Virus record (IMG/VR): IMGVR_UViG_2724679293_000010 | Location: 1-11,399 of that record | Direction: 5' to 3' (one strand) | Origin: a virus | Taxonomy: Duplodnaviria; Heunggongvirae; Uroviricota; Caudoviricetes | DNA: 11,399 nucleotides | In this document: positions 1-6,728 of the stretch, piece after piece | How positions within the stretch are numbered: the stretch's first letter is position 1 | Layout of the letters: every line of letters starts with the position of its first letter | The notes under the pieces: model-generated | Told to the model about the DNA's origin: nothing | Databases searched by the model: none | The model's input: only the letters and a program-made list of their open reading frames with translations | Position numbers and translations under genes: made by a program

Positions 1-290
1 TCATCCTCCGACATGGCACCGAGAAAATCATTCAGCGTACCGGGTTGAGAATCTTCATACACGGTGATGGTCCCGGCATGTGACGGCGGGAATCCTTCCA
101 CCAACAGAATGACGCTGTACTGACCGTACTCAACGTCCATGCTGTAACGACCGGCTTCATCCGGATTTTCAGAGGCCACCGTGTTCACCACCACCGTGCT
201 GCTGGTCCGTCTGGCTTTCAGTTGAATGGTGCAGTTCTCTACCGGTTTTCCTGTGCCGTCTTTCAGTACACCTGAAATCTTTACTGCCAT
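1..290 (-). CDS. stf: side tail fibre protein Stf, N-terminal 96 codons only (gene runs off the window start)
   Basis: Not in the ORF track because no stop lies in the window. Minus-strand ATG at 290-288 preceded by GGGGTGA RBS; hand translation MAVKISGVLKDGTGKPVENCTIQLKARRTSSTVVVNTVASENPDEAGRYSMDVEYGQYSVILLVEGFPPSHAGTITVYEDSQPGTLNDFLGAMSEDD is open to position 1 and matches the lambda Stf (orf-401) N-terminus as remembered; position downstream of lom fits lambda synteny. Confidence 0.85.
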   Translation of the reverse strand, partial: MAVKISGVLKDGTGKPVENCTIQLKARRTSSTVVVNTVASENPDEAGRYSMDVEYGQYSVILLVEGFPPSHAGTITVYEDSQPGTLNDFLGAMSED

Positions 291-354: not shown

Positions 355-954
355 TCAGAACTTATAACCGACACCCACGATGAAACCGTCAGTGCGCCAG
401 TCGCCACTGCCGGAGCCTTCATAAGCAATATCAATGGCCACGGATTCGGTCGGGTTAAACTGCACGCCAGCTCCCCACGCCAGAGACGTGTTGCTGTGGC
501 GACCGTCATCACTTCCGGTCAGCACATCATGCGTTTTCCCCTTGTTGTCGGTCACCTGCAGATAATCTCCGGAGAAAGTCGACACACGGCTGTAAGACAC
601 ACCCGCCATCGCATACGCGCTGAACAATTCATTCACGCGCACAGACGGCCCCGCCATCACGCTGAACCAGCGGTTACGCACGGAATCTTCATGCCAGCGG
701 GTATCGCTGTAACGGGTCAGCTGGCGATTCTTGTCTCCTGCATAGCTGAATGACGTCACCATTCCCAGAGTGTCCGTAAACTCATAACGGTATTTCACGT
801 TAATCCCGTTCAGTTCATCGCTGCCAGGAACGTTCGTCGAGACATGAAGATACCCCGCGCTCAGCGTGGACTGATGTTCAGACGCCCATGCAGGCGCACC
901 GGATACGGCCAGACAAATGGCTGCGGACAAAATGGCGGCATAAAGTTTACGCAT
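355..954 (-). CDS. lom: Lom outer-membrane protein (Ail/Lom/PagC beta-barrel family), lysogenic-conversion moron
   Basis: 199-aa ORF; signal peptide MRKLYAAILSAAICLAVSGAPAWA, C-terminal aromatic ...GVGYKF typical of OM beta-barrels; near-identical to lambda Lom as remembered; GAGAGGT RBS upstream of ATG at 954; sits between J and stf as in lambda. Confidence 0.95.
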   Translation of the reverse strand: MRKLYAAILSAAICLAVSGAPAWASEHQSTLSAGYLHVSTNVPGSDELNGINVKYRYEFTDTLGMVTSFSYAGDKNRQLTRYSDTRWHEDSVRNRWFSVMAGPSVRVNELFSAYAMAGVSYSRVSTFSGDYLQVTDNKGKTHDVLTGSDDGRHSNTSLAWGAGVQFNPTESVAIDIAYEGSGSGDWRTDGFIVGVGYKF

Positions 955-975
955 AATTACCTCTCGCTTTTCTGC

Positions 976-1002
976 AATAAAAAAGGCGCCATTTCTGGCG
1001 CC
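976..1002 (-). terminator. rho-independent terminator between J and lom
   Basis: On the minus strand: stem GGCGCCA / TGGCGCC (plus 996-1002 and 985-991) with GAAA tetraloop, followed by TTTTTTATT (plus 976-984); lies 20 nt downstream of the J stop codon. Confidence 0.6.
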
Positions 1003-1021
1003 CGTATATGGGTTATAAAAT

Positions 1022-4000
1022 TCAGCTGATACTGATGCCTGCGGTGGCTTTCTTCATCACCACAACCAGCAAATCGCTGATACTTGCTGTGGGATACCAG
1101 TTATTCACCAGCCATGCTGATACCGAAAACTCCAGCGTCATGTGACCGTGACCGGCAGGCATATCAATAACGCCACTGTAAATCAGCGTATTATCCAGCG
1201 CGGTACGGTTATAAATTTCAGCACCGTTTTTCCGCACTATCAGACGGCATGAGGAGTAAATATCAGTATGCTCTCTCTCATGCTTAGCGCCACTGAATGC
1301 CACCGCCGGAATAACAATCTGCCGGTCAAACGGCTGATCGTCATAAACCCTGACGGTAATGGTCCCTGATGGCCACCGCTCCGGTGCCCGGGAGTCCCGC
1401 GGAAAAGCCTTACCCACTGTTTTGACTATATCGCCTTCAATCTGGTTGGCTGACAGTTTCCCCTTAATCTGACAGTTCTCATTAATTGTGACATTGTTGA
1501 GCGTCCCGGCGTTCGCATTCACACTGCCACTGATATCTGCATTTTTAGCGGTCAGCTTTCCGTCCGGTGTCAGGGAAAATGCCGGAGGATTACCGCCGCT
1601 GGTAATGGTGGGAGCCGTCAGGCGTTTCAGGAACACGTCGTTCATGAATATCTGATCGCCCTGACCAACAAACATCGGCTTTGTGTTGCCATTCGCAGGA
1701 TTAATCATCGCAATCCTGTCTGCCGCCAGCAGCACCTGACTCTGCATTCCTGCTGGCGTATTCTCAATACCGGCACCGATACCCGCAATATAAAGGCGTC
1801 CGTCCTTCATCTGTTGCAGCTTCACAGCCCACATGCTGTTCAGATTATTATTTGTATCAACCTGAACCTTCTGTATCTGCTGGATCGCTGCACTCTGGTC
1901 TTCCAGTTTCTTATTGACGGTCTGCGTGATTTCATTACTGACATCCGTGATGGACGTTCTGATTTCCGCCAGGTCAGGCGCAAGCTGACCGTTATCAATC
2001 TGAGTCCACAACTCCTGAGCCAGATGGGTTTTCCCTATCTCTCCTTTGAAAAAATCCAGATAGCCGGATGCATCATCACTCGGCTGGCCAACAGCCTCCA
2101 CAAATGCCGATTTGCCAACGGTGTTCACACTGCGGATATAAAAGTAATAATCATGGCCCGGTTTGATATTGATACTGGCGGCTATCCAGTACAGCCCCGT
2201 GCCAAGGTAGCGGGCTGTGGTTTCAACCTGCCTGATATCGGTAATCCGCGTTTCCGAAAACCAGAACTCAAACTGTACCGTCGGGTCATACACCGCAAGA
2301 CGCGGGACCGCTGTTATCTGAAAATAGCCCGGTGTCAGCTCAATCTGTGACGGCGCTGCCGGTGCGGCAATCCGGAACGATACCGACGCCGGATCGCCCT
2401 GCTGCCCCCACGCATTTACCGCCCGGACTGTCAGCCTGTAGTTCCCCGGCGCCAGTTGCGTGAAGCGGTATGTGGTTTCCGTCGTCCGGGCCGTGCTGAC
2501 CAGCCGCTCACTGCCGTCATCCGCGACCACGGTCAGGCGAAGCATAAAGCTCACGCCCTTCACCACCTTCGGCGTGTCCCATTTCGCCTGCGCCAGATAC
2601 TGACCGTCAGCTGCGCTCACCTCCACCGTCAGGTGCTGCACTGCCGGAGGGATGACGCTGTTCAGGGTGCCTGACTGCGGCTCAAAGCTGGCCCCGTTAT
2701 CCACGATGGCTTCCTTTTCCGGTACGTGCTGCACCGCCGTGATGGCAAAGGTGCCGTCCGTGTTTTCCCGGATGGAGACACAGCGGAACAGGCGACGACA
2801 CAGTGACGGCAGGGAGAGTCCCCATACACCGTATGTCTCCACACCATCAGGCAGGGTGCTGACCTGTATCCGGTCCGGCGCGGGGTGTGCAGTGATGGCC
2901 ACGCTCACCGGCTTACCGCTGCCGTTAATCAGGTTCACCGTGGCGGCACCTGTCTCCGGCAGGGTCACCTCACGGTCCAGTGTCAGGGTGCGGCTGGCGG
3001 CATCGATGGACAGGATACGTCCGCCGGTCATGGTCCCGGCATAGTCGTTATCACAGATTTCAATAATGTCACCGGGTGTGTGACGCAGCCCCTGTGACCC
3101 GAGCGTGAAATCCACCGTCTGCGTTTCCAGCAGTCCGGTCTTTATCACCCACAGCCCGGCACGGTGGGCCTGACCGCGACTGGTGCAACCGAACGCATCC
3201 ATCTTCAGCAGGTTGCGCCCGTAGCGCAGTATGGCTTCCGGGTCTTCCACCAGTTCCGTGGAGGTCTGCCAGCCGTTCTGCGGGTCGGNNNNNNNTGTCC
3301 CACAGGCACCAGGCCGGGTTGTTGCTGTATGCCGGTTTCAGGCTGCCGTCCCAGATGCCGCTGTACGTGCGTTTTTCCGGGTCATAGTTTGACGGCACCT
3401 GGATGATGCGACCGCGGATATGGTAGTTCACCGTCATCTGCTGACCGCCAAACTGCTCCGCATCCACCTGCAGCCCCACAATCGCCGTGTTCGGGTAGCA
3501 CTGTTTCACATCGATGATTTCGGTGTATGACGACCAGAGCGTTCTGTTCTGCAGCTGGTCCGTGGTGCTGTCCGCCGTCTCCCGGACCATCCGGATGTTA
3601 AAGGGACGGGGAGGCAGATTCTCCAGAATCACCGACGCCAGGTACTGTGAGGTGGTCTTGCCGTTAATGGTGACATCCTTTTCCGTCACCCAGTTACCGT
3701 TACGCTGCAACTGAATCAGCAGTCGGACAGAAGAGGGATTACGGTCGCCCTTTGAGGTGGTCTCCAACAGTGACTGCACCCCGAAGGTGACCCGCAGGCG
3801 GTCAATGTTCGCGGACGTAATGGTGCGCGTCACCGGCTTTGCCTTCGTCACTTCCACGCCCAGTGCGGTTTCCGCCCCGGAGGACTCAAAGCCTTCAGGT
3901 GGTGTCTGCTCCTGCTCCCCGGCGCGCCAGACCGCTGTCACACCATGTATCACAGGATTACCGTCCGTGTCCGTCAGCGGGGTTTTGTTCACCAGGATAC

Positions 4001-4130
4001 TCTGCAGCCCCTTCACCGGACCTTCAATCGGCCCTTCACCAATGGCATCAATCACGCTCATCATCTGCGTGGACTTAAGATTGTCCTTTGCCTCTACCGG
4101 CGTGTGCGCCTTGCCGCCACCTTTGCCCAT
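1022..4130 (-). CDS. J: central tail fibre / host-specificity protein J; one gene split into two track ORFs by an N-run assembly gap
   Basis: N-terminal part (4130 down to 3296) begins [22 protein letters not shown]... with GGGGGAG RBS and reads through ...AWCLWD before the N run. C-terminal part (3288 down to 1022) resumes ...[25 protein letters not shown]... in a different apparent frame and continues to the stop at 1024-1022. Both parts are collinear with lambda gpJ as remembered, with roughly 100 residues unaccounted for at the gap. The track ORF start at 4172 (MFLCVTVITVKGET) is an upstream in-frame ATG inside the terminator T-tract and is not used. Confidence 0.9.
3289..3295. other. assembly gap (7 N) inside gene J
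   Basis: Literal nnnnnnn in the sequence; the J reading frame differs on the two sides, so the N count does not represent the true missing length. Confidence 0.95.
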
Positions 4131-4325: not shown

Positions 4326-4370
4326 TCCCGCAGTTCCTGTCCGTGAGCACTGCGGGATTTTTTATGTTTT
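4326..4370 (+). terminator. plus-strand hairpin followed by a T-run (weak terminator-like element) just downstream of the I stop
   Basis: Plus strand: 8-bp stem TCCCGCAG (4326-4333) / CTGCGGGA (4350-4357) with a 16-nt loop, followed by TTTTTTATGTTTT (4358-4370). The long loop makes this a weak call. Confidence 0.3.
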
Positions 4371-5049
4371 ATGCCTGCCGCCCGATAACCACCACCTTCC
4401 CGTCACCGCCTTCATCACGGGTACTGATGTCCTGGGAGATTCGCCGGGAGCCAACCAGCATTTCACCATAAGGCACCGGCATCGGGTTCCCCTGGGCAAT
4501 CATGTTATCCAGCGAGGAAAAGTACGTGTTCTGTCTGCCGTTATCCGTTGCGCGGTAATCCGGTGTTTTTGCCTTCGGGGCCAGCATCTGGGCCACACCA
4601 CCCAGAATCATGCTGGCCCCCAGTGAAAACAGCATCGTGGTGGCAGAAAAACCACCGGCTGCCAGGGCTGAACCCCATAACGCCATTGATGCCCCGGCCG
4701 TGAAGAACGACCCCACGATGGCTGCCGCCCCCAGCACAATCTGCAGTCCACCCTTTCCGGCCCCGGCCAGTCGCGGCACAATGTGGATGACCGTTCCCTC
4801 ACCCAGCTGTTCGTGAAGACGGGCGTACACCGCCTCCGGTGCCGTGTCCTCACCGCGAATACGTATCTGGTACCAGCCTTCGTTCATCTGACGGCGGAAT
4901 CCCGGCATCTGCATCGACAGGGCACGGATGGCTTCCGCTGCCGTGTTCACATACAGGCTGAGGCGGCGGCCAAATCGTTGTAAATCCCCGTGAAGGCAGA
5001 TGCGGACCAGTGGCGGTGACGCCAGACAGAATGCGTTCGTCGTTGCCAT
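4369..5049 (-). CDS. I: tail tip assembly protein I
   Basis: 226-aa ORF MATTNAFCLASPPLVRICLHGDLQRFGRRL... with glycine-rich hydrophobic central segment; collinear with lambda gpI as remembered; start overlaps the 3' end of K by 103 nt as in lambda. Confidence 0.93.
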   Translation of the reverse strand: MATTNAFCLASPPLVRICLHGDLQRFGRRLSLYVNTAAEAIRALSMQMPGFRRQMNEGWYQIRIRGEDTAPEAVYARLHEQLGEGTVIHIVPRLAGAGKGGLQIVLGAAAIVGSFFTAGASMALWGSALAAGGFSATTMLFSLGASMILGGVAQMLAPKAKTPDYRATDNGRQNTYFSSLDNMIAQGNPMPVPYGEMLVGSRRISQDISTRDEGGDGKVVVIGRQA

Positions 5050-5700: not shown

Positions 5701-6399
5701 TTACTGCGAAAGTTTATTAATGGAAAGGAAACCGCCAAAATTAGCCACCATGCCGCGCATCTCACACCCGCGCATGCACTTGCTGCATCTGTCCTTACGG
5801 ATATCGGTGGTGGGTTTATCGAACTCATCCGCCACAGCCCCGCCCGTGTAACCACACTCATCAGAGCGGTAGGTCCACATACAGGTATTCGCCAGCATAA
5901 TGCGACCGGGAAACAGCGCTCCGTCCGTCTCCGTCGGTGTTGCCAGCACAAACGAGGCTGTCATGGCCGTCAGCTCTGACATCTGCTCCACCACCCAGCG
6001 GTCGCTCAGCTCCTGCTCCGGGTCCGCTTCCGGATTGCCCGCCACAAAATTCACCGCATCCAGAAAACGGGCATACACCCGGCGGCGGACCACCGTGGCC
6101 CCCACCAGGCTCTGCAGGTCCTCCGCCATCCCGGTGACCAGACCAAACAGATTGGACACCGTCAGCGACGGTCTGGCACTGCTGCCCTTCCCGTTCATCT
6201 CAAAACCGCTGCCGTCAATCGGGTATACCTGATATTGCCGCCCCTGCCAGGTGACCGCCTCCCCTTTTTCATTCAGCTCATTACAGAAAAAATACCGCTC
6301 ACCGCCCTGCACCGTCAGGTCAATTTCCCAGAGCACCACCCGCGGTGACTGCTCTGATTTAACCGACTCGTTCAGACTTTCTTCGTGAATATCCTGCAT
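5701..6399 (-). CDS. L: tail tip protein L
   Basis: 232-aa ORF MQDIHEESLNE...; C-terminal four-cysteine cluster (CGYTGG...CSKCMRGC), consistent with the Fe-S site described for lambda gpL; start codon overlaps the M stop as TGATG, as in lambda. Confidence 0.95.
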   Translation of the reverse strand: MQDIHEESLNESVKSEQSPRVVLWEIDLTVQGGERYFFCNELNEKGEAVTWQGRQYQVYPIDGSGFEMNGKGSSARPSLTVSNLFGLVTGMAEDLQSLVGATVVRRRVYARFLDAVNFVAGNPEADPEQELSDRWVVEQMSELTAMTASFVLATPTETDGALFPGRIMLANTCMWTYRSDECGYTGGAVADEFDKPTTDIRKDRCSKCMRGCEMRGMVANFGGFLSINKLSQ

Positions 6400-6728
6400 C
6401 AGTTCACCACCTGCTTAAACTCCGCGCTGAATTCAACCCGCAGCATGCGAACCCGTGATGACCAGGCGGCACAGGTCACCTTTATCTGCCGCCAGGCATA
6501 AGGCGGTGTCCACAGAAACGCCTTCCAGCCACCGTGCTCTGCCAGGAATGCCTCCAGATGTCGGGCCTCCTCCCGGGTCACGGAAAGCGTCACACGGTAT
6601 GTTTTCAGGTCAGCATTCAGCCCCGCCGCCATACGCTGCGAATACCCGTCACCAAAACGCACTTCACGCACCGATGGCTGCGAGTTCACCTCCATATCCG
6701 GCTTCACTTTCCAGCGAAATGTTTTCAT
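6399..6728 (-). CDS. M: tail tip protein M
   Basis: 109-aa ORF MKTFRWKVKPDMEVNSQPSVREVRFGDGYSQR...EFSAEFKQVVN, same length and near-identical to lambda gpM as remembered. Confidence 0.95.
   Translation of the reverse strand: MKTFRWKVKPDMEVNSQPSVREVRFGDGYSQRMAAGLNADLKTYRVTLSVTREEARHLEAFLAEHGGWKAFLWTPPYAWRQIKVTCAAWSSRVRMLRVEFSAEFKQVVN

Follow-up and report, generated by a model that had tools for sequence, protein, structure and literature searches.

The C-terminal end of the tail tip protein J encoded in the window, by which we mean the whole analysed stretch of 11,399 nucleotides of viral DNA, is probably a known OmpC-specific module of the VT1-Sakai type that was gained by modular exchange and that would bind OmpC of the EDL933 type, not LamB. 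On the minus strand, positions 1022-1510 hold the last 162 codons and the stop codon (1022-1024) of the gene for a lambda-type tip attachment protein J (central tail fibre), and thus its C-terminal end. The finding is correct but ordinary, as the domain is of a common and already characterised J type of pathogenic E. coli prophages.

Gene J and its genomic neighbourhood

The window contains a lambda-like block of tail genes on the minus strand, in which J is located after H, M, L, K and I and before lom and stf, and the same gene order is annotated in E. coli RM6067W, lambda and 434. The genes of the block are as follows:

6804-9368, minus strand: tape measure protein H, 854 residues, full-length Pfam match
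6399-6728, minus strand: M, full-length Pfam match
5701-6399, minus strand: L, full-length Pfam match
between L and I, minus strand: K, named from its open reading frame and from how matching E. coli and lambda records are annotated
4369-5049, minus strand: I, full-length Pfam match
4130 down to 1022, minus strand: J, full-length Pfam matches to a series of domains
355-954, minus strand: lom, a full-length Ail/Lom outer-membrane protein (Pfam E 1.4e-117), downstream of J
3-290, minus strand: N-terminus (phage_tail_N) of the side tail fibre gene stf, cut by the edge of the window

At the other end of the block, a heptamer A AAA AAG is found at 9756-9762 (minus strand) just before the stop of a G-like tail chaperone open reading frame (9738-10232), which is followed in another frame by a T-like open reading frame (9403-9711). 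This heptamer is a candidate site of programmed -1 frameshifting, as in lambda G/GT.

Gene J itself is interrupted by a short run of N, which breaks it into two frames in a mechanical list of open reading frames. Its parts are the following:

3296-4130, minus strand: 5' part of J, 278 codons, aligning to lambda J residues 1-278 at 78%, with FNIII-A_GpJ at E 3e-42
3289-3295: run of 7 N inside J, equivalent to 375 bases (125 codons; lambda J residues ~279-404) in the closest complete genome
1022-3288, minus strand: 3' part of J, 754 codons and the stop, equivalent to lambda J residues 405-1132, with the Pfam domains Phage-tail_3, Ig_J, Ig_J_second, Phage_Tail_Tip and Ig_GpJ_C

The 3' part shows a single mismatch in 2267 bases (99.96% DNA identity) to the gene for gpJ WP_000514959.1 of E. 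coli O157:H7 RM6067W, with 753 of 754 residues identical, and the 5' part is 98.4% identical to the same gene in DNA and at 274 of its 278 residues. In the alignment, bases 1-835 of J correspond to bases 1-835 of the RM6067W gene and bases 843-3109 to bases 1211-3477, the N run standing in for bases 836-1210. The change of frame across the run is an artefact of its length and reflects no mutation. The RM6067W protein is intact, with 1158 residues, and both readable parts of J are open and match it, with 375 bases masked between them. From the hub to the receptor-binding domain, the domain series of J reads FNIII-A_GpJ, Phage-tail_3, Ig_J, Ig_J_second, Phage_Tail_Tip and Ig_GpJ_C, all far over their cut-offs.

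Mosaic structure of J relative to lambda

Protein and DNA identities by segment reveal J to be a mosaic relative to lambda. The segments, named according to the description of lambda J in PMC11101478, compare with lambda at the protein level as follows:

lambda J 1-640: hub domains, 68-83% identity (68% over 405-640)
lambda J 641-808: FNIII/Ig region, 92% identity, with DNA stretches at 99%
lambda J ~809-896 (window ~1700-2096, minus strand): helical shaft, 37% identity and 28 extra residues
lambda J ~897-980 (window 1436-1690, minus strand): beta-prism (central straight fibre), 87% identity
lambda J 981-1132: receptor-binding domain, 44% identity

The original prediction had J tracking lambda closely up to a divergent receptor-binding end. 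The upstream half of this claim stands in part: the 84 residues adjoining the divergent end (87%) and the segment equivalent to lambda 641-808 (92%) are indeed lambda-like, but the segments equivalent to lambda 809-896 (37%, with the 28 extra residues) and 405-640 (68%) are not. The shaft at ~1700-2096, where DNA identity is 12-71% to lambda, 82-100% to VT1-Sakai and 51-76% to BP-4795, is by these alignments a second exchanged, divergent module of J. In lambda the shaft flips upon receptor binding, and the longer shaft of the J described here might alter fibre length or triggering. The FNIII/Ig_J segment at 2097-2546 (minus strand) is 84-99% identical to lambda in DNA as against 52-84% in the flanking segments of J, which suggests a recent exchange with lambda-like phages.

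The divergence of the C-terminal end is abrupt. When protein identity to lambda J (NC_001416) was computed in blocks of 40 residues, it amounted to 80% over residues 897-936 and 95% over 937-976, and to 52, 50, 42 and 31% in the four blocks spanning lambda J 977-1131. The last 156 residues are 44.9% identical to lambda by tblastn, and the 137 residues from the motif GDIVK to the C-terminal end are 43.1% identical. The DNA is 86-97% identical to lambda over 1691-1467 and 35-66% over 1466-1022; at finer resolution, identity is 97% at 1601-1512, 66% at 1511-1422 and 35-54% below, a fall from 97% to ~50% within ~100 bases near 1500-1420. Identity to VT1-Sakai, by comparison, is 83-86% across this junction and 93-100% below ~1420. 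The expected difference of the C-terminal ~150 residues from lambda is thereby confirmed by pairwise alignment, with an identity of 43-45%, far under the >90% that had been named as refuting it, and with a sharp break at the place where it had been noted.

Identity and distribution of the allele

From GDIVK to the end, the domain is 97.8% identical to that of VT1-Sakai, 63.2% to BP-4795, 62.4% to A8 and 43.3% to 434, the value for lambda being that given above. The match to VT1-Sakai covers 134 of 137 residues, and the three differences are I/L (in GDIVK), R/K (in HEREH) and S/T (in AGISIS). Phage records at 95-97% protein identity include VT1-Sakai, Stx2a_WGPS2, JLK-2012 and PPompW. Many complete E. 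coli genomes, O157:H7 and O26 included, contain the 489 bases at 1022-1510 at 100% identity, and 250 records match them at 99% or more. The allele family was found in 3805 of 5426 complete E. coli genomes, with a median of 2 and up to 12 copies per genome; DNA of lambda's own receptor domain is present in 98 of the same 5426 genomes, and the five matches listed for it are all laboratory strains. These alignments show that the domain belongs to an allele family different from that of lambda, namely the one of VT1-Sakai and many enterohaemorrhagic E. coli prophages. The allele is already known, and it is also present in engineered lambda particles in the form of the near-identical 1A2 module.

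Fold and variable loops of the receptor-binding domain

The domain and its four most variable stretches are located as follows:

1025-1417, minus strand: receptor-binding domain (Ig-like, Pfam Ig_GpJ_C, PF12421), the divergent module
1367-1408, minus strand: variable loop 1, between predicted strands 58-64 and 79-87, high entropy
1265-1291, minus strand: variable loop 2, hairpin GAKHEREHT, highest entropy in the domain
1190-1198, minus strand: variable loop 3 (LDN), between predicted strands 127-134 and 138-147, raised entropy
1073-1108, minus strand: variable loop 4, SAWLV before the NNW.P motif that is common to A8 (ANNWTP)

The match to PF12421, which Pfam describes as the 'C-terminal receptor binding domain' of J, covers the whole profile (1-135 of 135) and scores 129 bits against a cut-off of 26.2. 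An AlphaFold2 model of the monomer, built from a 46-sequence alignment and a 192-residue query, is of moderate confidence overall (mean pLDDT 79.9), with pLDDT values of 82-97 across the core (query residues 61-160). Its top Foldseek matches in the PDB are 9wca, 8xck, 9wcb and 8xcj, with E values of 5e-22 to 1e-19, and the next match is at 2e-4. Of these structures, 9wca is the closed A8 gpJ713 fibre and 9wcb is A8 gpJ713 bound to OmpC G17 of EDL933, while 8xck is the closed lambda fibre and 8xcj is lambda gpJ713 bound to LamB; a separate PDB sequence search found three OmpC chains in 9wcb. Structure prediction, which had been proposed as a check on the C-terminus, thus produced a model that matches the solved gpJ domains of both lambda and A8, and this model shows the last ~131-137 residues as a receptor-binding domain with lambda's fold, a beta-sandwich.

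Column entropy over 48 distinct homologous domains placed most of the variation in four stretches, which include DSRAPERW, HEREHTDIY and AWLVNNWYP, and one 17-residue and one 12-residue motif of the domain are conserved among the homologues. A conserved core with variable loops is the pattern expected under selection. In the predicted strand order the variable stretches are every second loop, and they therefore fit the four bottom loops L1-L4 that lambda pushes into LamB (PMC11101478). It is plausible that the four variable loops are the receptor-facing bottom loops and that the conserved loops face the fibre; top and bottom are assigned here from strand order and from the loops of lambda, and loop orientation is deduced from a model of the monomer. 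Loop 1 has the same length as in lambda and exceeds that of A8 by 4 residues. Loop 2, which is 5 residues shorter than in A8 and holds the R/K difference from VT1-Sakai and 1A2, probably contacts the receptor.

Receptor specificity

Experimental data on receptor use are available for a chimera with a near-identical domain. Brödel et al. (Nature 2024, PMC11338833) joined C-terminal parts of naturally occurring J variants to lambda J, and two of their chimeras use OmpC. The A8 chimera works with OmpC of both K-12 and EDL933; 1A2, when first tried on these two variants, worked with that of EDL933 alone, and it accepts some but not all OmpC variants of a panel of 23 (PMC11338833). The delivery values in the source data of that paper, those of 1A2 having been obtained on a lambda tail whose side fibre is engineered and not with a native phage, are as follows:

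1A2 on MG1655 (LamB, K-12 OmpC), MOI 50: delivery 5%
wild-type lambda on MG1655, MOI 174: delivery 98%
1A2 on a lamB ompC double deletion with K-12 OmpC, MOI 38.7: delivery 2%
1A2 on MG1655 carrying EDL933 OmpC, MOI 26 and above: delivery 93-99%

The DNA of gpJ 1A2 printed in the supplement is recoded, and its machine-read text drops bases and has no single-frame translation; owing to the dropped bases, a tblastn search with the window's domain gave broken matches in three frames. The comparison was made with exact 4-residue words in any forward frame of the printed DNA. It recovered 128 of 137 domain residues of VT1-Sakai (the other 9 of 137 being unconfirmed for 1A2 in the machine-read text), 123 of 137 of the window, 33 of 138 of A8 and 19 of 138 of lambda. 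In addition, 1A2 has GDLVK, HEKEH and AGITIS in this text and thus carries L, K and T, as VT1-Sakai does, at each of the only three positions that distinguish VT1-Sakai from the window. From the word counts and these readings, the 1A2 insert is identified as a VT1-Sakai-type domain, from which the domain in the window differs by I/L, R/K and S/T, all of them conservative substitutions. Since this near-identical allele (97.8%) uses OmpC, OmpC is also the most likely receptor here, and the domain would discriminate between its variants. The same evidence supports the suggestion of a target different from LamB, or of a variant of it, as the OmpC-using 1A2 carries the J domain of VT1-Sakai, to which the domain in the window shows 97.8% identity.

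By analogy with lambda, three copies of the domain would form the tip of the central tail fibre, and the four loops on its underside would dock on a trimeric porin, which would start the rearrangement that opens the tail. The porin would be OmpC, with a preference for the EDL933/O157 type over the K-12 type, and not LamB. Exchange between beta-prism and receptor domain is the usual route by which host-range modules are swapped in lambdoid phages, and the domain would have come by recombination at the junction of the beta-prism and the receptor-binding domain.

Alternative explanations

It is barely conceivable that the divergence is simple drift of a domain that has kept LamB as its receptor, in the manner of lambda and phi21. 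The fold, the length of the domain and the lengths of loops 1 and 2 do match those of lambda, and phi21, a lambda relative, natively uses LamB (PMC11336670). However, identity to lambda is only 43-45%, the loop sequences differ, and the divergence is abrupt at a module boundary and not gradual; the J of phi21 is 94% identical to lambda in DNA and so is not comparable, and 1A2, whose domain is 97.8% identical, gave only 5% delivery at MOI 50 into the LamB-positive MG1655. It is also very unlikely that J is a decaying remnant in a defective prophage, its divergent end being without present function, even though many lambdoid prophages of enterohaemorrhagic E. coli are defective, the J of VT1-Sakai is annotated as truncated by mutation, and the J studied here is unreadable across the 375 bases of the N run. 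Both readable parts are open reading frames and are 99.96% (3') and 98.4% (5') identical in DNA to an intact gpJ of 1158 residues, the neighbouring H, M, L, I, lom and stf have full-length Pfam matches, and the conserved core with variable loops is a pattern of the kind expected under selection.

The three substitutions that separate the domain from that of VT1-Sakai might direct it to another outer-membrane protein such as OmpF, or give it a range of OmpC variants unlike that of 1A2. This seems improbable on the whole: although the change from K to R falls in loop 2, the most variable loop, and a few point mutations in lambda J suffice to add OmpF (PMC11101478, PMC11336670), all three changes are conservative, the exact allele of the window and the VT1-Sakai-type allele both occur in O157:H7, the same host type, and A8 still uses OmpC at 62% identity, so that the receptor has been kept across much larger sequence distances. 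We likewise regard it as unlikely that the three substitutions, above all that from K to R in loop 2, shift the set of accepted OmpC variants; if they did, co-resident prophages of enterohaemorrhagic E. coli would have finely tuned and non-equivalent host ranges. An OmpC-specific module of the VT1-Sakai type acquired by exchange thus is the preferred reading.

Comparison with known J systems

The closest known system is the gpJ chimera 1A2, which carries the C-terminus of a J of the VT1-Sakai type (AP000400, BAB19562) and has a domain of the same receptor-binding allele family as the one described here (97.8% between the window and VT1-Sakai J over 137 residues). The engineered junction of 1A2, after ...AKNADISG, lies within ~20-35 codons of the point at which identity to lambda falls in the natural sequence. 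The two proteins differ in the last layers of the beta-prism, which read SVNANAG...CQIK in the window and NVNANSG...CRVL in 1A2, and in the remainder of J, as 1A2 is carried on the body of lambda J whereas the J of the window comes with a shaft and hub modules of its own.

A8 (9wca/9wcb) has the same fold and is the best solved match both by sequence (E 1.8e-80) and by structure. It has the core and, in loop 4, the NNW.P motif in common with the domain; its receptor is OmpC, and domain identity is only 62%. Relative to A8, loop 1 is longer by 4 residues, loop 2 is shorter by 5 and of other sequence, and loop 4 is similar. A8 takes K-12 OmpC whereas 1A2, which is of the window's type, does not, and differences in the loops plausibly underlie the differing OmpC-variant ranges of 1A2 and A8. 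The phage phi330, which comes from a clinical enterohaemorrhagic strain, needs OmpC: it fails on the ompC mutant of the Keio collection, and complementation restores it (PMC12502783). The hairpins quoted for it are T918-Y921, E953-S962 and A1015-P1020, of which E953-S962, equivalent to loop 2 of the window, is predicted to point into the OmpC barrel (PMC12502783). By a count of coordinates on the sequence of A8, not of phi330, these hairpins fit A8 exactly, as TNSY, ENFNSNNQQS and ANNWTP.

Lambda J (8xck, 8xcj), which uses LamB, has the same architecture of hub, FNIII/Ig region, helical shaft, beta-prism and Ig-like receptor domain with four bottom loops. Its beta-prism (87%) and FNIII region (92%) are close to those of the window, but its receptor domain (43%) and its receptor are different. 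The central tail fibre of phage 434 (OL657226) carries a homologous domain, uses OmpC and represents the classical J swap from lambda to OmpC; at 43% identity and with other loop lengths, it is a separate lineage that is no nearer to the window than lambda is.

Several other candidates for comparison were set aside. Phi21 was rejected as an OmpC-binding relative, being a native LamB user with a lambda-like J (94% DNA identity; PMC11336670). The J of Gifsy-1, an OmpC user, is no guide here, its C-terminus being only 18% identical to that of lambda. The statement that long-tailed Stx phages use OmpC, cited in PMC12502783, goes back to a source on the T-even phage PP01 and is irrelevant, and a preprint on receptor prediction (10.64898/2026.04.02.716166) deals with gpJ of Drexlerviridae, a different domain.

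Significance

The analysis points to OmpC of the EDL933 type as the likely receptor for a J allele that is found in the prophages of a large proportion of E. coli genomes, O157:H7 and O26 among them. This is relevant to the range of strains open to infection by phages of this kind, some with Shiga toxin genes, and to the selection of tail tips for engineered lambda particles. No new biology is added, as the exchange of receptor modules in J has been known since the lambda/434 hybrids and the module itself has already been used and assayed as 1A2.

The receptor allele family of the window's J is also carried by PhiR40.1 (89%) and PhiR55.1 (~95%). For the PhiR phages with this allele family, the paper on SNIPE (PMC13190303) gives dependence on ManYZ and no outer-membrane receptor. 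PhiR40.1 and PhiR55.1 are only modestly sensitive to the SNIPE nuclease, and sensitivity to SNIPE follows tape measure clade and ManYZ dependence (PMC13190303).
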